Virus record (IMG/VR): IMGVR_UViG_3300026118_000019
Span: 4,261-68,260 of that record
Direction: 5' to 3' (one strand)
Source: a virus
Length of the DNA: 64,000 bases
How positions within the stretch are numbered: position 1 is the first letter of the stretch; each line of letters begins with the position of its first letter. This document shows positions 3,918 through 29,745 of the stretch, one piece after another. The notes under the pieces were generated by a model. That model did not search any database. It worked only from the letters and a program-made list of their open reading frames with translations, and had not been told where the DNA came from. Both the position numbers and the translations under genes were made by a program.

Positions 3918-4340
3918 CTACTTTTCCGTGACGAGTCGACGCAAGGCTTGGTCGACGAGGGCCTCAACAGTCGTTTGCCTGTGGGCTGCCAATCGTTTGA
4001 GGTCAGCATGAACCATGGGGTCGCACTTCAACGATTTACGCGGCGCGGGTCCCAACGGGCGGTTGCCCAAAGATCGGCGACGAATTTTGTTCATGAGGGG
4101 GTCCAACTTATCAATCAGTTGTTGTTCCAACGCCAGGGCTTGTTGGTGTGTGTCGACGGGCAACATCAACACCCTATCCCCAACTTCCGGCTTCACGATT
4201 TCGTGATTTCGCAGACGGCGGAGCCCGTATTTCGTTCCGCCCACATACAGCGTCTGTCGTCCACGTTGCCAGATATAAGCCATTGGGCCGGTAGCTTCTG
4301 GAAAGGCGTCCGTCAATTCTGGTTCGATGGCCACAGACAT
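3918..4340 (-). CDS. GIY-YIG-like domain fused to C-terminal ribbon-helix-helix
   Basis: AYIW...LYVGGT...RRLRNH...ALEQQLI..LDPLMN, then KSLKCDPMVHADLKRLAAHRQTTVEALVDQALRRL. Confidence 0.55.
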   Translation of the reverse strand: MSVAIEPELTDAFPEATGPMAYIWQRGRQTLYVGGTKYGLRRLRNHEIVKPEVGDRVLMLPVDTHQQALALEQQLIDKLDPLMNKIRRRSLGNRPLGPAPRKSLKCDPMVHADLKRLAAHRQTTVEALVDQALRRLVTEK

Positions 4341-4365
4341 CTTGAAATGTCTACAAGTCTACACC

Positions 4366-6063
4366 ATGCCGCGTAGGGTCCCCTATCCCCAAGCCCCGGA
4401 CGATTTCAGCAAGCTGCCGCTGGCGGTGATTCAGGACGCGTTACGGGCGCGGGGGGCGGAGCCGGAGCGGCTGCCGCTGATTGACTTCATTGCGCAGTCG
4501 TGGCCGACGGTGGAGGGGAAGCGGAAGTTTCTCCCGAACTGGCATATCGAGGCGAAGGCGGAAATGTTGACGGCGGTGGCGGACGGGCAGATAGCGAAGC
4601 TGGTGATTAATGAGCCGCCGGGGTTTGCGAAGTCGCTGGTGACGTCGGTCATGTTTCCGGCGTGGCAGTGGGGGCCGAACCTGAAGCCGCACACACGGTT
4701 TCTGTGTTTGAGCTACGGGGGGGACGACGCGAGTCCGGCGGGGCGCGACGCGGAGCGCTGCCGAGATTTGATTCAGTCGCCGTTCTACCAGTCGCAGTGG
4801 GGGACGGTGGTGCAGCTGTCGGATACCCAGAATGCGAAGAGCTACTTTGCGAACAAGCAGAAGGGCTATCGGGTGTCGACGGGCATGGACGGGACGCCCA
4901 GCGGCCAGCGCGCGGACATCGTGGTGATTGACGACCCGACGAAGCTGGACGCCGAGACGCTCGCGGAAATCCTGCACGCGTCGGAGGTCTACGAGCGGAC
5001 GTTGGTCCACCGCGCGCTCGACGAGGGGTCAGCCTTCGTGCTGATTATGCAGCGGCTGCACCCGGAGGATTTGAGCGGATATTTCCTGAAGCAGGACGGG
5101 TGGGTCCACCTGAACTTCCCGCACTTCTACGAGGCGGATCGGAAGTGCCGCGTGTTCCTGGGGCCGACGCTGCTCTATGAGGACCCGCGCACGATTGAGG
5201 GGCAACCGCTGCACCCGTTGATGACGACGGCGATTGAAGCCGCGCACACGCAGCAGAAAATGCGCCCGGATATTTACGACGGGCAGCAGCAGCAACGGCC
5301 GATTGCCAAACACGGCCAGGTGGTGACGCGCATTGATCGGTATGACGCGCTGCCCAACTGGATTGACGAAATCATCATCGTGGTGGACTGCGCGTTCAAA
5401 GCGGAGGAGGACAATTCATTTGTCGTCTTCCAGAAGTGGGCGCGGCGCGAGGCCAACGCCTATCTGCTCGACCAGGTGCGCGAGCATTTGGAATTACCCG
5501 CCACGTGTGAGGCGTTGGTCGCCTTCTGCGCCGTGGAGCCTCAAGCGACGGCCAAGTATGTCGAGGCGAAGGCGAACGGCATGGGGGTCGTGCAGATGTT
5601 GCGCAACCGCGTGGCCGGACTCATGACCACCGATGACGATACCGAAGTGTTGAAGGTGTTCTGCGCGGGGAGCAAAGAGTCGAAGCTGCAAGCGGTGTCG
5701 CCCTACTTCCTCGCGGGCAACGTGAAGATTCCCAGCAAGGCGTATCTCGAAGCCAACGGCCGTTTCGATTGGACGCCGACGTATGTGCAAGAGCTGACCA
5801 CGTTTCCCAAGAGCCGGTTCAACGACCAGGTGGACGCGAGTGCGATGGCCGTATGGCGGCTGCTGCACACGTTCGAGGCACACGTGTCGCAGGCGTCGCT
5901 CATGAAAGATGACCAAGGGAACGTCGGATTGGTGGCGGGGATTTTCGGGGCCGCGTATGCCGACCCCGATATCGCAGGCGAGCGGGTGCGGGTCGGCGGA
6001 TTGGAGAGCGGTGGCGGCGGCGCGCTGATGGGCTTTTGGGATAGCGCCTACGGAAAGGGATAG
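4366..6063 (+). CDS. terL: Terminase large subunit
   Basis: LVINEPPGFAKS Walker A, DIVVIDDP Walker B, IMQRLHPEDL, YVEAKANG and DQVDA nuclease motifs; start could be 4327. Confidence 0.92.
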   Translation: MPRRVPYPQAPDDFSKLPLAVIQDALRARGAEPERLPLIDFIAQSWPTVEGKRKFLPNWHIEAKAEMLTAVADGQIAKLVINEPPGFAKSLVTSVMFPAWQWGPNLKPHTRFLCLSYGGDDASPAGRDAERCRDLIQSPFYQSQWGTVVQLSDTQNAKSYFANKQKGYRVSTGMDGTPSGQRADIVVIDDPTKLDAETLAEILHASEVYERTLVHRALDEGSAFVLIMQRLHPEDLSGYFLKQDGWVHLNFPHFYEADRKCRVFLGPTLLYEDPRTIEGQPLHPLMTTAIEAAHTQQKMRPDIYDGQQQQRPIAKHGQVVTRIDRYDALPNWIDEIIIVVDCAFKAEEDNSFVVFQKWARREANAYLLDQVREHLELPATCEALVAFCAVEPQATAKYVEAKANGMGVVQMLRNRVAGLMTTDDDTEVLKVFCAGSKESKLQAVSPYFLAGNVKIPSKAYLEANGRFDWTPTYVQELTTFPKSRFNDQVDASAMAVWRLLHTFEAHVSQASLMKDDQGNVGLVAGIFGAAYADPDIAGERVRVGGLESGGGGALMGFWDSAYGKG

Positions 6064-23344: not shown

Positions 23345-23821
23345 ATGCCTTTGTTGCCTGCTAGCATCCTTGGGACAGCGGCGGCGAGTTCAGCGAGCCC
23401 CGTGTATGTCTCGCCGCTGTCGTCGTCTGCGCCGTCGATTGGGTCCACCATCACCCTCGCGCAGAATCCCAAGTCGGCGCTCTTTTATCTCAACTTCAAT
23501 CAGAGCCCGCCTAATTCCTCACAGACGATCAACGTCTATATCGAACACTCACCCGATGGTGGGGTGACGTTCGACGACTTTGTGTCGTTCCCTCTCGTAG
23601 CGGGCAAAGGCACCCCGGCGGACCAGATTGCTGTGTGGGTGCGTGACGTTGCGCCATCCAGCAGTGCGATTGTCCGCACGCCCACCACGCGCACGTTGGC
23701 GGCAGGCACGGTGCTGCAAGGTCCCGTGGCTCCGGTGTGGCGCTGTGAAGCGGTCCCGGCGACGAGCTGTTCGTCGAGCCAGGCGTGGCAGATCAACGTT
23801 ACCGCGCAGATTGGGCAATGA
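23345..23821 (+). CDS. Beta-rich putative virion protein
   Basis: GGAG RBS; VYIEHSPDGGVTF. Confidence 0.6.
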   Translation: MPLLPASILGTAAASSASPVYVSPLSSSAPSIGSTITLAQNPKSALFYLNFNQSPPNSSQTINVYIEHSPDGGVTFDDFVSFPLVAGKGTPADQIAVWVRDVAPSSSAIVRTPTTRTLAAGTVLQGPVAPVWRCEAVPATSCSSSQAWQINVTAQIGQ

Positions 23822-26800
23822 GCGTCCGGTCCTCAGTCGCATTGGCGGTGCGTGCCCTAGCCGACAGGCTGGGGAAACCTTCGTTTGCGGGCACCCCATT
23901 CCCAGACGGGGAAGTCAGCAAAGACATCCAACTCACCGGAGAGCTGGGTGGCACTGGCACATTCAACTTCGGCGGCTTCATTCGGGGAGAAGATTTCAAC
24001 CCCCAGATGGACGCCCAAACCGCCATCAAGAATCTCGACGAAATGCGGCGGTCGGATTCACAGGTGCACGCGGCGCTCGAAGTGGTCAAGCAACCTATCC
24101 GCACGGCGGATTATGAGTTAGACCCCTCAGACCCAGACGACCCCGAAGCCAAAGAAGTCGCCGACTTCGTCAAGTGGTGTCTCTTCGAAGGCATGACCAC
24201 CACCTGGGATGACGTCATTCGCCAAGCGCTGCTCGAACTAGACTTCGGCTTCATGCTGTTCGAGAAGGTGTGGACCGTCGCGGAAGACGGTCCTTACGCG
24301 GGTCACATCATTCTCTCTAAGCTGGCGGCACGGCCACCACGGACAATCTGGCAGTGGTTCACCGACGAAGACGGGGGGCTGATTAGTATCAAGCAGCTGG
24401 CTGTCAAAGCGGGCACCTATCAATTTCTCGATGTGCCGGTCAGCAAGTTGGTGCGCTTCACCTTCCAACAGGAGGGTGACAACTTCACGGGCATCAGCAT
24501 GCTGCGGTCCGCATATCCGCACTGGCTGATCAAGAAACAGCTCTATTTGATTGACGCGATTCGCGCGACGCGGTTCGGCGTGGGTATCCCGCGCGCGAAG
24601 TTGAAGGCTGGATATAAGCCAACCGAAGACGACCGCAATGCCATTGCGCTGATGTTGCAGGGGCTGAGCAGTCACCAGCACGCGTATCTGATTGAGCCGG
24701 AGCAAATGGAAGTCGACATTCTCATGCCGCAAGGTGTGCAGGGTGGCGCGCAGTTGCTGCCGTCGATTCAACACCAGAACGAACAGATTACGCGCAACAT
24801 CCTAGCGCAGTTTCTCGACATGGGCGGGCGGAGCCAGGGCGGAAGCCGCGCACTCGGCTCGTCAGCCATGGATTTCTTCCTCAACGCCATTGAAAGTATC
24901 GCCGACCAAATCTGCGACGTGCTGAACAAGCAGCTCATCAAAGACCTGGTCGACATGAATTTCGACGTCGCCAAGTATCCGACGTTGCGGCCGGTCGGGA
25001 TTCACGAGACCGACGTGTCGAGTCTCGCGGCAGCGGCCGGAGCGCTCGCGGGCGCAGGTCTGCTGACCCCCGACAAGAAGACCGAGAACACCTTCCGGCA
25101 AATGCTCAACCTGCCGGAAGTCTCGGAAGAATTGCTGGAGGGCGTGCAACCAGGAGCCCCAGGCCAGTCGGGCATGCAAATGCCGGTCGGGATACCGGGG
25201 ATTCCTGGGCAGCCTCCACGACCAGGCCAGACGACAGGCCAGCCTGGGAAGGCCGCGCCAGCGCCTCCAGCGCCTGCTACAGCGCTGAGGCCCGGCCAGG
25301 CCAACACCATGGTCACCGGCCCGACCAAAGCGGTCTCTACGGCTACTGGCCCGTCTCTGGCCGTGAAGGCGCAGAACGTCCAGCGGGCGGAATTAGCGGA
25401 CGGGGAGACGTTCCAGCCGTTGGCTCCGATGACCGTCCCTGCGGCCACCACCGTGCCGATTGCCGCGTCGACTCTGGCCATGAGCCCGGTCGACGTCGAC
25501 CAGACACCGAACGCACCGCGTTTCATTGCGCCCCAAAAACCGGAATACGTGACTCCAGCCGAAGGTGTCTCCGGACGCCCCATGGTTGTCGAGCCGCCGC
25601 AACATCAACCGCCGACGAGCCATGACCCACGCGGGCAGGATATGGCGTCGACCAATTGGACCAATGAACTTCCGGCCAGGTCGACGGTGTATCAGACCGA
25701 GCCCGCGCGCACGACTATCGCTACCGTGACTCCGGCAGTGAGCAACGTGCGTGCCCCCATGTCAGCGCGGAGTGCGATTAGTAACATCATCCCAGCGACG
25801 GCAACGATTACGACGCAGCCGCACCACCAGGCGCACATGGCGCGCTCGACGACCGTCTCTTCGGGAGACGGCGGCGAACTGGAGGGTCACTCGTGGAGCG
25901 AGGCGGCATTGCCGCCCAACTTCAAGCCGCACGCAGCAGCGTCGCCAGACCAGAGGATGGGCGGAACGCCGAGCATCAGGGGGACAGCGCCGCACACACA
26001 CCCGACCGGGCCAGTGGCCTTTACAAGCCGGGCCAAGTCGAACCTGGACAGCTCGACGTTGTGGAGGGACCCGAGCCCATTGGAACTGCGAGTGCTGGAG
26101 CTACGGGAAATCCCGCGCCGTCTCGATACCGAACGCAACGCCTTGAGAAATACGCTGCTCGCCGTCCGCGAGGAGCAGATTTTGCGTCTCGCGTCGGCAG
26201 TCGCTCACGCGCGATCCGGCGACCCGATTAAGCCACCCCTCGTGGGCAAGATGGCGTCCGATATCGAAAAGGTGATGAAGAGCACCTTCGAATACGGGCA
26301 TGCCCAAGTGCTCACCGAACTGCGCAAACAAGGGTTCCGGACGCGCGGGGCACGCGCCTTCGCGGATTGGAATGAAGACCTGCACCCGCGTGGGTCCGGG
26401 GGTCTGTTCACGACAGCGAATGGTGGTGACGGCGGGCACGTGACGACTGTCACAGCAACGATTGCCAACGAAGCTGGTTCACTAATTCAAAAATCAGAGT
26501 CTTCCCATAAAGAGATGGGAATTGTCATTGATCATACTGGTAACGTCATTGAACGGGCGTCCCAGCGGAGTGCCTACGGCAGCCGAGATATAGGATATCC
26601 AAAGAGCTATAGCGCTTTACATACTGCTGATGCCAATTTAACGGTGGTGCACACCCACCCGACACAAGTTGGGAACGACGAATACCACGCCACGACGTTC
26701 TCAGCCGGTGACTTAAAATTTGCCTTACAACCAGGCGTCGGACGCATGGTTGTATTGACTGGAAAAGGTGACCGATTCGAATTTGCCAAGGTGCGACCGA

Positions 26801-29745
26801 GCGCCATCCCACTAGCTCAAGCAATGGAGAAGACAGCTCGTAGCATGTTGACTGGTAGTCCAGCACATGATCAAGCTGTGACAAATATGCGTGGGCACGC
26901 GATGATGGCTAGGCTTGTTGACGGTGGGCACGTCGATGGCTATCGCGCGACGTTGACGTCGAAGACAAAAGAAGTGCTCGAACAACAGACTCGGCAATTT
27001 GCCAACGACTGGAAGAGGTTAATCCACAATTCTAACGAGACGTGGGAAACTCAACTTAGAGGCGAAATCAAATTCGCGGATTTTGACCCAGACCTGCACC
27101 CGCGCTCGGATGATGGTAAGTTTACGTCAGGAGGCCCAGATGCCGGAGCGCCCGCCGATTCGAAAACCAGTGGAGCTGTCGGAGGAGGAGGAGCTGAGGT
27201 ATCCGCCCCCGCGTCCAAAGCCGCCCGTCCCAAGCCCAACCACGTAACGGCGTCGGTTGCGAACGAATACAACTCGACGCACGGCATGCCGCCGATTGAA
27301 CACGGCTATGTCGACGTCGACCAGCACAAAGCTGGAACGATTGCGGACGCCTACGACAAGCTGCCGGTTGATGACAGCGCCAACCCCGCCGTCCGGATAG
27401 CCTACCAAGCGCTGGGCACTGAGATTCAAGCGCAGTGGGACTACGCCACCACGAAGGGGATGCACTTCGAGCCCTGGACGAAGGAGGGCCAACCCTATCA
27501 GACGTCGGTCGAAATGGCCGACGACGTCCGCGCGAACAAGCATCTCTACTTCTATACCGGTGGGGAACCGCACCCATTCCTGTCGGAGCCGGACAAGAAC
27601 GGCCTGTCGCTGAACGATAAGTTCCGCGCGATTCACGACTACTTCGGGCATACGGCTGGAGGCTACGGGTTCGGGCCACGCGGGGAAGAGAACGCCTGGC
27701 GCGCACACTCGCAGATGTTCTCGCGCGACGCGCGGAAAGCTATGACGACGGAGACCCGTGGGCAAAATTCCTGGGTCAACTTCGGTCGCCAGAACTACAA
27801 CCCGGACGGCAGCTACAAAAACATTCCACCGCCGGACCGGCCCTATGCGGTCCAGAAGGTAGCCATTCTCCCAGACGAGTTCGTCGAGATGCGTGAACGC
27901 ACTGGTGGCATTGCCTTCGCGTCTCCGAACACCCGTAAGACCGCGTTCCCGCACTTGACCGCCAGCGCCAAGCTGTCCGCCCAGTCGGCGGCAGATAAAC
28001 TCCTCGGCTCCGCGCAGGCTGAAGCGCTCCGCCTCCAGCGCGCAGGATGGGACGAAGACGAAGTCGAAGACGCCCTGAAAATTCACATGGGCGAGCTGAG
28101 CGACGCTGATATCACGCGCATTGCCAACACCGAAGTCAACGAGTCGTTTTCGATGGGCCGCGTCGCCGCTGGGAAAGAGTTCCAGGACGAAATCGAGTAT
28201 GCCGTCTACAGCGCCATCCTCGATAACTCGGTGTGCAAGGTGTGCGAGGACTTGGACGGTAAGGAGTTCGAAGTCGACAGCGACGACTACGAAGAGAACA
28301 TGCCGCCGAATCCGAACTGCGAAGGCGGGGACAATTGCCGGTGCGCGTATATCTACGTGCTGAAGACGCCAGACGAGGATGACGACGTTGAAGCTAGCGA
28401 CGCAGTGCGCATGGGGGATTGGGACGAAGACCTGCACCCGCGTGACGATGCAGGGAAGTTCACATTTGTCTCTGGCGGCGGCGCATCCAGCAGCAGTGGC
28501 AAAACCGACGCGGAAAAAGAAGCCGACAAGCAACGAGAAGAAGCGAAACAACAACACTACGCCAAGCAACACGAGGAGTTTGACCGCCTGAAGGGCAACT
28601 GGGCACGAATCAACAACGATTTGCTGGACAACATCCATGAGCCGGACTCGCCAGCGGCCCAAGAGAAGATGAGCCAGCTCCAGGATTTAGTGAAGCAAAT
28701 GGCGCGTCTCGATGCCGACCCTGGCGGGCTGGAAGGTATCGGCTTACCTGGTGGCGCGCGGGACGTGGTCATCGTCGGCACTGGGCCTGGGGGAATGGCA
28801 GCGGCAATCAACAGCAGCTACGACGGGCTCGATACCTTGGTGATTGACGCGGATGAACATCCCGGCGGGCAATCGAAGTATTCGAGCCGCGTGGAAAACT
28901 ACCCTGGGTTCCCGATTGGTGTCACCGGAGCCGACCTCGCTAAAAACATGCACGAGCAGGCGACGCGTCTCGGAGCCGAAAGCAAACTGGGCGTGAAAGT
29001 GGTGAGTCTGACCGTGGACCCGAAGACCCAGCTGAAGACGCTCACGTTGTCGAACGGCGAAAAGATCGAGGCCCGGTCAGTAGTGATTGCGGGTGGCGTG
29101 GAGGCGCGCGCGGTGGCCTTCCCTGGGCATGACGCCAAAGACATCTTCTATCTGGACCCCGTGAAGCTGAAGGCCGAAGCGGTCGGTGGCAAACCGACGG
29201 TCGTGGTGGGCGGCTCGAACGGCGCGGCGCAGGCCGCGCTAAGTGTGGCCAAAGAAGACGGCGACGTTTACGTGGTCAGCCGGTCGCCGATTGAAAAGAG
29301 CATGAGCGACAACCAAATCACGGCGCTGCGAAGCAATCCGAAGATTCATATTTTCCAGGACGAAATTCACTCGGTGGAAAAAGATTCGGATGGGAATACC
29401 CAGGCCGTCGTGCTGAAGAGCGGTAAACGGCTGGACGCGTCTGGCGTCGGCATGTTCATCGGCGGGGCTCCGAAAGTGGATTGGCTGCCGAAAGAAATTC
29501 AGCTCACCAATGGCAAGGTGCACACGACCAAGGATATGGAAACCAACATCCCTGGCGTGTTCGCGGTCGGTGACGTTCGTCACGAAGGTGGTGGCCGCAT
29601 CGGGGTCGCGGTCGGTGACGGTCAGATCGCCGCCCGCAACGTGTCGGGATATTTCAGTAAGTTGAAGGCTGAGCAAGGCGGCGGCAAGGGCACCAGTCAC
29701 ATTCAGCAGCACCACATGAAGCCGGGTGACCCTGATGCCAAGTAA
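23818..29745 (+). CDS. Portal (Mu gp29/DUF935-like) fused to MuF and three extra enzyme-like domains
   Basis: Portal: EMRRSDSQV, GF...EKVW, G.SMLR.AY..W..K, RFGVGIP, ILAQFL...GSRALG; MuF: RIANTE...AILDNSVCKVC..LDG...PP...NCRC; TrxB-like C-terminus. Confidence 0.85.
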   Translation: MSVRSSVALAVRALADRLGKPSFAGTPFPDGEVSKDIQLTGELGGTGTFNFGGFIRGEDFNPQMDAQTAIKNLDEMRRSDSQVHAALEVVKQPIRTADYELDPSDPDDPEAKEVADFVKWCLFEGMTTTWDDVIRQALLELDFGFMLFEKVWTVAEDGPYAGHIILSKLAARPPRTIWQWFTDEDGGLISIKQLAVKAGTYQFLDVPVSKLVRFTFQQEGDNFTGISMLRSAYPHWLIKKQLYLIDAIRATRFGVGIPRAKLKAGYKPTEDDRNAIALMLQGLSSHQHAYLIEPEQMEVDILMPQGVQGGAQLLPSIQHQNEQITRNILAQFLDMGGRSQGGSRALGSSAMDFFLNAIESIADQICDVLNKQLIKDLVDMNFDVAKYPTLRPVGIHETDVSSLAAAAGALAGAGLLTPDKKTENTFRQMLNLPEVSEELLEGVQPGAPGQSGMQMPVGIPGIPGQPPRPGQTTGQPGKAAPAPPAPATALRPGQANTMVTGPTKAVSTATGPSLAVKAQNVQRAELADGETFQPLAPMTVPAATTVPIAASTLAMSPVDVDQTPNAPRFIAPQKPEYVTPAEGVSGRPMVVEPPQHQPPTSHDPRGQDMASTNWTNELPARSTVYQTEPARTTIATVTPAVSNVRAPMSARSAISNIIPATATITTQPHHQAHMARSTTVSSGDGGELEGHSWSEAALPPNFKPHAAASPDQRMGGTPSIRGTAPHTHPTGPVAFTSRAKSNLDSSTLWRDPSPLELRVLELREIPRRLDTERNALRNTLLAVREEQILRLASAVAHARSGDPIKPPLVGKMASDIEKVMKSTFEYGHAQVLTELRKQGFRTRGARAFADWNEDLHPRGSGGLFTTANGGDGGHVTTVTATIANEAGSLIQKSESSHKEMGIVIDHTGNVIERASQRSAYGSRDIGYPKSYSALHTADANLTVVHTHPTQVGNDEYHATTFSAGDLKFALQPGVGRMVVLTGKGDRFEFAKVRPSAIPLAQAMEKTARSMLTGSPAHDQAVTNMRGHAMMARLVDGGHVDGYRATLTSKTKEVLEQQTRQFANDWKRLIHNSNETWETQLRGEIKFADFDPDLHPRSDDGKFTSGGPDAGAPADSKTSGAVGGGGAEVSAPASKAARPKPNHVTASVANEYNSTHGMPPIEHGYVDVDQHKAGTIADAYDKLPVDDSANPAVRIAYQALGTEIQAQWDYATTKGMHFEPWTKEGQPYQTSVEMADDVRANKHLYFYTGGEPHPFLSEPDKNGLSLNDKFRAIHDYFGHTAGGYGFGPRGEENAWRAHSQMFSRDARKAMTTETRGQNSWVNFGRQNYNPDGSYKNIPPPDRPYAVQKVAILPDEFVEMRERTGGIAFASPNTRKTAFPHLTASAKLSAQSAADKLLGSAQAEALRLQRAGWDEDEVEDALKIHMGELSDADITRIANTEVNESFSMGRVAAGKEFQDEIEYAVYSAILDNSVCKVCEDLDGKEFEVDSDDYEENMPPNPNCEGGDNCRCAYIYVLKTPDEDDDVEASDAVRMGDWDEDLHPRDDAGKFTFVSGGGASSSSGKTDAEKEADKQREEAKQQHYAKQHEEFDRLKGNWARINNDLLDNIHEPDSPAAQEKMSQLQDLVKQMARLDADPGGLEGIGLPGGARDVVIVGTGPGGMAAAINSSYDGLDTLVIDADEHPGGQSKYSSRVENYPGFPIGVTGADLAKNMHEQATRLGAESKLGVKVVSLTVDPKTQLKTLTLSNGEKIEARSVVIAGGVEARAVAFPGHDAKDIFYLDPVKLKAEAVGGKPTVVVGGSNGAAQAALSVAKEDGDVYVVSRSPIEKSMSDNQITALRSNPKIHIFQDEIHSVEKDSDGNTQAVVLKSGKRLDASGVGMFIGGAPKVDWLPKEIQLTNGKVHTTKDMETNIPGVFAVGDVRHEGGGRIGVAVGDGQIAARNVSGYFSKLKAEQGGGKGTSHIQQHHMKPGDPDAK

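Follow-up and report, generated by a model that had tools for sequence, protein, structure and literature searches.

Head proteins of the MuF family are known carriers that bring extra proteins into phage heads, and in the portions of the literature covered here these extras are described as C-terminal. In the MuF polymorphic toxins, as presented in the available sections of Jamet et al. 2017 (PMC5576092), MuF is the head-located carrier of a variable domain; this domain is C-terminal and is often accompanied by an immunity gene, and the gene lies beside the portal gene or is fused to it. Polyvalent proteins, described in the main text of Iyer et al. 2017 (PMC5512222), combine many unrelated enzyme-like domains in one polypeptide within a head-gene context, and that text mentions polyvalent fusions to portal and MuF as well as zincin-like peptidases proposed for processing. 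Known portal-MuF fusions (phrog_2662) place the portal and then a full MuF, made of an N-terminal half and a Cys core, in one uninterrupted polypeptide of ~730-800 amino acids (aa). Here we describe a gene at positions 23818-29745 (+ strand) of a 64,000-base stretch of the IMG/VR virus record IMGVR_UViG_3300026118_000019, the whole of which we call the window. The encoded protein is a portal-MuF fusion in which a block of 533 aa splits the MuF fold at the flexible loop that joins its N- and C-terminal halves.

The window is part of a 68,260-base single-contig phage genome that also holds a large terminase, a tape-measure gene and a Mu-type head module. The gene occupies one uninterrupted open reading frame (ORF; 23785-29745, +) that opens with GTG at 23785, and residues are numbered from this codon throughout. 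The Met encoded by ATG 23818 is common to all 15 aligned relatives, and counted from there the portal-linker-split MuF-cargo polyprotein is 1975 aa, the length of its database copy P0002. A Mu-type portal domain (aa 84-437; 24034-25095, this and all following features on the + strand) matches Portal_Mu PF06074 with E 2.7e-52 and 178.6 bits against a gathering cut-off of 23.9, covering profile positions 4-334 of 336, and phrog_113 with E 3.7e-75. The portal is joined to a complete MuF head protein by a disordered, low-complexity linker of ~300 aa, rich in Pro, Thr, Ala and Gln by composition (aa ~455-755; 25147-26049), for which the Pfam and PHROG scans gave no family match. The helical N-terminal half of MuF, here called segA, follows at aa 756-852 (26050-26340) and ends with FEYGHAQVLTELRKQG at nucleotides (nt) 26287-26334. 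Then come the inserted block (aa 853-1385; 26341-27939), the C-terminal half or Cys core of MuF (aa 1386-1530; 27940-28374) and a C-terminal flavoprotein. Every element that the original prediction had listed was recovered, in the same place and order, by Pfam, PHROG and sequence reading.

The C-terminal half is recognized directly. Phage_Mu_F PF04233 matches aa 1421-1522 of the whole protein (E 5e-10, 40.5 bits against a cut-off of 29.6), and the core segment scanned alone reaches 45.6 bits (E 1.4e-11) over profile positions 14-111 of 112, together with matches to MuF-type PHROGs. For segA alone, hmmscan found no MuF family in Pfam or PHROGs, and the Pfam MuF model spans the C-terminal core only. 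Because profiles alone gave no family, homologs and structure were needed to name the N-terminal half. A phmmer search with segA across 1.84 billion representative proteins returned 12 proteins at E<=1e-3, of which 11 are portal fusions; the remaining match, P0130, was rejected as a repeat artefact. The segA matches and the portal-bearing matches of the region search make up a family of 15 proteins, with the window protein counted among them as P0001, and 14 of these have a MuF core.

The idea that the segment at 26060-26340 is the MuF N-terminal half, so that modules sit inside MuF, came from the original prediction, and uninterrupted relatives, a MuF alignment, a one-unit fold and the predicted packing of the two halves all agree with it. 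In 7/14 core-bearing proteins (P0004, P0122, P0123, P0124, P0128, P0129 and P0131) segA adjoins the core, with a gap of 16-30 aa compared to 533 aa in the window protein. For example, P0004 reads "...ELRKQG", 19 residues, then "...LPHLTASAQLSAQ...", and the identical flanks stand 533 aa apart in the window. The other seven core-bearing proteins have long gaps, with 256 aa in P0063, 187 in P0009, 137 in P0127, 125 in P0003, 118 in P0125 and 116 in P0012 in addition to the window protein. Stand-alone MuF genes, L044 (327 aa) and L025, likewise have segA directly N-terminal to the core. In an alignment of 22 MuF sequences segA aligns throughout, and G94 and E101 are invariant; both are part of a "YG...E" motif whose window version is FEYG..E.

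Structure prediction gave the same picture. The contiguous MuF of relative L001 (274 aa, 22 alignment rows) was modeled by AlphaFold2 as a single confident unit, with a predicted local distance difference test (pLDDT) score of 91.1 and a predicted template modeling score of 0.88. Its sole dip is at residues 101-120 (mean pLDDT 77 and 57), between the last segA helix and the first core helix, which is the position of the insert in the window. Foldseek found no match for this model in the PDB at E<=1e-3, where there is no solved MuF, and 77 matches in BFVD at the same threshold. Among the 50 BFVD matches listed, the named entries are mostly proteins of minor capsid or head-morphogenesis type, or MuF-carrying fusions with a protease, a portal or an effector. 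Stand-alone BFVD proteins of 248-313 aa align over 254-306 columns, i.e., the whole model including the N-terminal half.

When the two halves from the window (aa 1380-1540 and 751-860) were submitted as separate chains to complex prediction, they scored 0.85, and the best of three controls scored 0.00. This mark was reached by 58/80 solved complexes and by 2/110 mismatched pairs, a calibration that holds only roughly, the score having been made with our own alignment. At least 90% of contacts agree between runs, partner pLDDT is at least 84, and the tightest predicted contacts are between the conserved FEYG of segA (835-839) and SMGR of the core (1455-1459). As the PDB has no MuF, a solved MuF structure is an unlikely source of the packing score. 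Based on the prediction that the halves pack as one domain, MuF probably still attains its fold, and the inserts would loop out from its surface.

Two other readings of the long ORF have to be weighed against an insertion. In one, the segment at 26050-26340 is a portal C-terminal extension or an unrelated domain, and the MuF is N-terminally truncated with nothing inserted. Such a reading would fit the lack of a MuF family match for segA alone in Pfam and PHROGs, and it would fit P0126, which keeps segA and has no MuF core. We consider it very improbable, since stand-alone MuFs carry segA with residues that are invariant across 22 MuFs, structural matches to stand-alone MuFs span the full length, and the halves are predicted to pack (0.85 vs 0.00). 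In the other, separate genes have been joined into the ORF by a chimeric assembly or a frameshift artefact. The source is a metagenome assembly, and the repeated 16-aa motifs of this gene (tags, described below) are short repeats able to mislead an assembler, with one 54-nt cross-match between two of them. Against this, the DNA copies of the tags are just 56-83% identical, relatives with the same order exist (P0012 has the identical order of portal, MuF, tag, coil and thioredoxin-reductase-fold domain), and the identical protein is recorded on four contigs. The check for assembly errors that the original prediction had called for was made at the level of contigs. In one run, possibly the source (X1), the whole stretch lies within a single contig. 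Contigs X3 and X4, from runs of other studies, bridge the junctions of segA, tag 1 and the first inserted domain and of that domain, tag 2 and the second inserted domain with 0 differences; X4 also bridges the core, tag 3 and the thioredoxin-reductase-fold domain with 0 differences. None of the independent contigs listed spans the portal/linker junction or the one between the second inserted domain and the core; for these two the support comes from X1 and relatives. Because independent metagenome contigs bridge the insert junctions, an artefact is unlikely there and at the core/tag 3 junction, and a chimeric origin of the ORF as a whole seems more improbable still than a truncated MuF.

Seven of the 14 core-bearing relatives carry inserts at the junction of segA and the core, which makes this site an insertion hot spot, and MuF thus has a second route for extra proteins, in which whole domains are inserted into a surface loop, repeatedly in one clade. 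What is inserted varies between tagged enzyme-like domains, ParB-like domains and helical blocks: P0009 has a tagged HELEH domain, P0125 and P0127 have untagged ParB-like domains with DGHHR or DGHKR, P0003 and P0012 have helical blocks without a tag, and P0063 has a 256-aa block. The more distant long fusions L067, L008 and L052 carry their added length in the portal-MuF linker, outside MuF, so the hot spot is so far limited to the close clade. An intein-like origin of the insert was dropped, as Pfam scans of the whole protein and of both inserted domains returned no intein, Hint or homing-endonuclease family. The 9-nt sequence GCCTTCGCG, encoding Ala-Phe-Ala, is found at both insert edges (26356-26364 and 27913-27921). 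The loop of uninterrupted relatives contains "FA(D)", and "FAD" or "xGD" stands just before tags. The repeat may represent a recombination junction, for which it is weak evidence, or it may be due to chance given the shared residues and codon bias. Relatives of the MuF part of P0128 with 30-413 aa were absent at E<=0.001, and tblastn with the MuF core against GenBank phages gave three records only. The genome collection held two distant portal relatives only, in an Arthrobacter sp. and in an Acidimicrobiaceae metagenome-assembled genome, which is a lead only to an actinobacterial host.

Each insert module consists of a tag, a flexible linker and a globular domain, and the block holds two of them. 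The first is led by tag 1, a variant (DWNEDLHPRGSGGLFT; aa 861-876, 26365-26412), and contains domB (aa ~885-1095; 26437-27069). The original prediction called domB a JAB domain, and the motif residues are present (E910, H956-x-H958 and S973-x-x-D976, with a longer spacer); the label itself is unverified, with no match in Pfam or PHROG at E up to 5 and none in the PDB by sequence. No domB homologs of 119-380 aa were found, nor any among 128 fetched proteins, its structure model is unusable (pLDDT 25-50), and the Atlas leads from domB to JAB families all score <0.9. A second domain with an E..HxHP..SxxD motif (THNHPAGYGLSVDD) is located downstream at 30623-31150, with a faint BLAST match to domB (E 0.28).

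The second insert module is led by tag 2 (DFDPDLHPRSDDGKFT; aa 1099-1114, 27079-27126) and contains domC (aa ~1150-1375; 27232-27909). This is the domain predicted from its HDxxGH signature, and it does carry HDYFGH at aa 1284-1289 and match phrog_3170 with E 3e-23. Its model has pLDDT >90, and its invariant residues are enzyme-like: N, R-A-x-H-D-x-F-G-H, G-E and E..G-Q. DomC is present in 114/128 fetched proteins, the majority of them large and polyvalent (up to 3416 aa). It also occurs in 19 IMG/VR loci, inside ORFs of up to 3641 aa and as stand-alone ORFs of 208-235 aa. It has no PDB match by sequence and 0 by fold at E<=1e-3, half of the model being low-confidence, and its Atlas hits are unnamed viral clusters only.

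A third module follows the MuF core and comprises tag 3 (DWDEDLHPRDDAGKFT; aa 1545-1560, 28417-28464), a charged, possibly helical spacer (aa ~1570-1650; 28492-28734; also in P0012 and L025) and a flavoprotein domain of thioredoxin-reductase (TrxR) fold (28762-29622). Pyr_redox_2 PF07992 covers aa 1660-1946 with E 2.6e-32, and the domain matches the solved structure 7aaw_A with E 3.6e-34. Of the TrxB-like assignment made by the original prediction, the fold stands, and the FAD motif is present. There are no Cys residues in aa 1656-1965, and the C-A-V-C of 7aaw_A aligns to non-Cys residues, so the domain is not a classical thioredoxin reductase. A Pfam scan of the C-terminal extension found no toxin family. 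The order of MuF, tag, coil and flavoprotein is also seen in P0012 and L025, and L130 has an ORF with TrxR-like and ParB-like parts.

Eight or nine tag-led modules, spread over four ORFs, precede the prohead protease gene, and the big gene is both the first and the largest member of this array. The next three ORFs contribute five or six further modules ahead of the protease, and in each a tag is followed by a Gly-rich stretch and then a domain. Cargo ORF 2 (29726-31153), whose ATG overlaps the stop codon of the big gene, encodes a degenerate tag and a domain also seen as a fusion to the portal-MuF protein P0003, followed by a tag at 30479-30526 and the second HxHP..SxxD domain. In L025 (11900-12286) the ORF 2 N-terminus (29726-29800 in the window; …EWDALVDRLFALDREYPYLGQ) is in frame behind the TrxR-like domain. 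Since this domain is fused in P0003 and L025 and separate here, modules are fused in some phages and separate in others. Cargo ORF 3 (31150-32832) consists of a tag, an HGT domain with sub-threshold leads to the ADP-ribosyltransferase (ART) fold, another tag and an HEMGH zincin-like domain (32122-32829), which scores 17.8 bits to PF07737 against a cut-off of 27.4 (E 0.0029) and is also sub-threshold to PF10263. The zincin-like domain, which is a candidate processing peptidase of the array, is also present in P0126 and P0065. Cargo ORF 4 (32829-33770) has a tag and a DGHHR domain with a ParB/Srx-like motif.

Downstream of the cargo ORFs are, in order, the Mu-like prohead protease I gene (34039-34854; PF10123 E 2.7e-23; phrog_328), which is a candidate processing enzyme and lies 4.3 kb downstream of the big gene, a scaffold-like ORF (34894-35898) and the major head protein (36583-37521; phrog_1005 E 2.7e-76). 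The C-terminus of the protease ORF has a CxxC...CxxC zinc-ribbon-like stretch, and the scaffold-like ORF has another CxxC stretch at its start. The large terminase (4327-6063) is ~18 kb upstream of the portal (23818), an unusual gene order for a head module, and tail-fiber-like ORFs (Laminin_G_3, phrog_863) and a methyltransferase lie between them.

The tag has the 16-aa consensus (A/G)-D-(W/F)-D-E-x-x-H-P-R-x-x-x-G-(K/R)-F and is followed by a Gly-rich stretch. In the window, tags start at 26365, 27079, 28417, 30479, 31228, 32026 and 32934 and lie within 26365-32996 in four consecutive ORFs; a regular expression found these seven copies, compared to a mean of 0.02 and a maximum of 1 in 100 shuffles. 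Identical tag residues are encoded by identical codons in 55% only, so selection acts on the tag peptide. Among 129 fetched proteins, 21 contain a total of 44 tags, with none in shuffles. A strict DNA pattern located the tag in 83 IMG/VR stretches, and 80 loci were analyzed; these contain 61 distinct ORFs with 69 tags, 47 of which are followed by sequence rich in Gly, Ser, Ala, Pro or Thr. In 21/55 ORFs with a closed 5' end the first tag is <=50 aa from the first possible start, sometimes at residue 2-3. In three IMG/VR loci it is found in a gene between MuF and the protease, in a portal from another family, or N-terminally in a prohead-protease ORF. In the unrelated IMG/VR contig L152 (1285-8899), the portal belongs to a different family and has a tag and then an Alt-like ADP-ribosyltransferase, and the ORF holding the prohead protease begins with a tag. 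The cultured Gordonia phage GodonK has a tag at the N-terminus of gp67 (residues 22-37 of 1479 aa), whose gene is directly after the portal; the 23-aa tblastn query that led to this real tag gave only matches of E = 5. We found no Pfam or NCBIfam model for the tag and no paper by literature search, and a word check of the main text of PMC5512222 did not find the motif. Head-internal proteins thus come with the conserved tag in one cultured phage and in at least 80 contigs of uncultured viruses, and we infer that the tag is a protein-level short linear motif marking such proteins.

The original prediction held that twelve copies of each cargo on a dodecameric portal argue for processing. By our own rough estimate, 12 extensions of ~165 kDa amount to ~2 MDa of extra protein, which would occupy <2% of a 68-kb capsid; lack of room therefore does not force cleavage. 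Processing is better argued from four points: the precedent of phage Mu, in which the last 124 aa of the portal C-terminus are absent from the virion and were probably removed by protease I, according to the sections of PMC11915804 covered; the Mu-like protease encoded here; the inability of portal-tied cargo to leave; and the conserved islands in the long linkers of this clade. Within the linker, two islands are conserved in the clade, HDPR (25621-25632) and ARS..SSGDADEEGHS, the latter within HMARS..SSGD..E.EGHS at 25834-25896. The pattern ARS..SSG.A.EEGH is found in 10/15 family members, with variants in P0001 and P0126. The islands may be processing or docking sites; the Mu gp29 C-terminus showed no similarity to the linker or its island.

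Taken together, this gene, which belongs to a 68-kb tailed phage of soil or rhizosphere metagenomes, probably opens a polyvalent head-cargo array, with a scheme of fusion, release and delivery. Fusion to the portal would put twelve cargo copies in every procapsid, with no need for separate targeting. The Mu-like protease I would then cut the portal C-terminal extension, as reported for phage Mu, and the zincin-like domain of ORF 3 may also act in cutting. This cut would free MuF and its cargo, which would exit along with the DNA for early action in the host. The modules would be exchangeable cassettes, because the same domains are fused in some relatives and are separate ORFs in others. For the tag itself, a role as a docking or loading signal is our tentative preference, held at somewhat less than even confidence and favored over a cleavage site; its N-terminal position argues for docking or loading, while its position between modules and the nearby zincin-like domain argue for cleavage.

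Several observations weigh against parts of this scheme. Processing, packaging and ejection are all steps that we infer, and neither domB nor domC is matched to a characterized function. The tag is within 120 aa upstream in just 8/115 domC copies of other polyvalent proteins and hence is not a general delimiter of polyvalent proteins. The portal, protease and capsid families that it accompanies differ, which speaks against one partner specific to a family and also against the tag being where a single prohead protease cuts. Tags also persist in the portal fusion itself, whose attachment to the portal would seem to make a pure loading signal superfluous. Lastly, domC and the MuF core have no tag between them, so that cutting at tags alone would leave domC on the core.

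Two alternatives concern what becomes of the polyprotein. The tags could be cleavage sites at which the ORF 3 zincin-like domain or the prohead protease cuts the array into single-domain effectors. They do sit between modules in disordered, Gly-rich stretches, the array includes the zincin-like HEMGH domain with its sub-threshold matches to PF07737 (E 0.0029) and PF10263, and zincin processing of polyvalent proteins has been proposed in the main text of Iyer et al. (PMC5512222). A homolog of the ORF 3 zincin is also present in 2/20 tagged vs 0/108 untagged fetched proteins, but this count is too small to weigh. Many tags, however, are at residues 2-20 of stand-alone ORFs (L141, L160, L174), where cutting removes almost nothing, and they occur with three different prohead-protease families; we therefore regard cleavage at the tags as the less likely role. 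Alternatively, the polyprotein may stay whole, with 12 full-length copies attached to the portal that act in the capsid or at the portal, for example by retaining DNA or serving as a plug, and never reach the host. Consistent with this, the 12 extensions of ~165 kDa would by our rough estimate take up <2% of the capsid volume, and cargo-free portal-MuF fusions are common (53/80 loci), so MuF works while tethered. Yet the cargo domains resemble polyvalent-protein enzymes thought to act in the host, as stated in the main text of PMC5512222, portal-tied proteins cannot exit through the portal, the Mu portal C-terminus is reported as removed (PMC11915804, in the sections covered), and the long linker carries conserved islands. 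An uncut, undelivered polyprotein is improbable on balance, clearly more so than tags that serve as cleavage sites, and release followed by delivery is the reading we prefer.

A broader generalization would be that the tag is a general, position-independent signal for capsid residence or release, that the MuF loop is permissive for cassettes and that portal-MuF is a programmable twelve-copy carrier; at present we hold this to be speculative and rather unlikely in full. If the tag is a loading or release signal, it would be a handle both to predict the phage proteins that are injected into hosts and to package chosen proteins into capsids, and how phages dose and deliver early effectors would become testable.

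Compared to known systems, the closest likeness is to portal-MuF fusions. The original prediction took portal and MuF to be usually separate neighbors, which does not hold for this group: 53/80 related IMG/VR loci have a one-ORF fusion, mostly of 730-800 aa. The relative P0124 matches phrog_2662 across both MuF halves, and BFVD portal entries match the MuF model. By the marks of a MuF protein, the core of the window protein matches the profile, the full fold is obtained in prediction, and the gene is fused to the portal in the same ORF; what sets it apart from known fusions is its 300-aa linker, the 533-aa insert in MuF and a 450-aa C-terminal extension. The head module of phage Mu, which ends with the major head protein T, has the same portal (PF06074), MuF (PF04233) and protease (PF10123) in identical order. 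In Mu, however, portal gp29 and MuF gp30 are separate genes, whereas the window has one ORF, and the extra domain of gp30 is C-terminal, whereas the insert here is internal.

Capsid-targeting or cargo-loading peptides, as in the T4 internal proteins and encapsulin cargo, likewise combine a short conserved peptide with a flexible linker, at the end of proteins destined for the interior of an HK97-fold shell. The tag has no sequence likeness to these peptides, and it is also found internally and on portal-fused proteins. Like the MuF polymorphic toxins, the window protein uses a portal-associated MuF as a carrier; it differs in having two modules inside MuF and in that no toxin family was identified. 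The text of PMC5576092, by a word check of the portions available, has no mention of insertion or cleavage. Portal-MuF fusions, MuF proteins carrying C-terminal effectors and polyvalent proteins are thus already known, while neither repeated domain insertion into the MuF inter-half loop nor a tag-led cassette organization was found described in the literature searched, as far as its sources were covered. The window protein resembles polyvalent proteins in that portal-MuF bears domB, domC and the TrxR-fold domain, and in that domC also occurs in proteins carrying ART-PolyVal or LPD Pfam families. DomC was not found in the main text of PMC5512222, whose supplementary domain lists may hold it as an LPD. 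Relative to the polyvalent proteins of Iyer et al., this locus is distinguished by its four-ORF array, its tag-led modules and the two modules that interrupt MuF.

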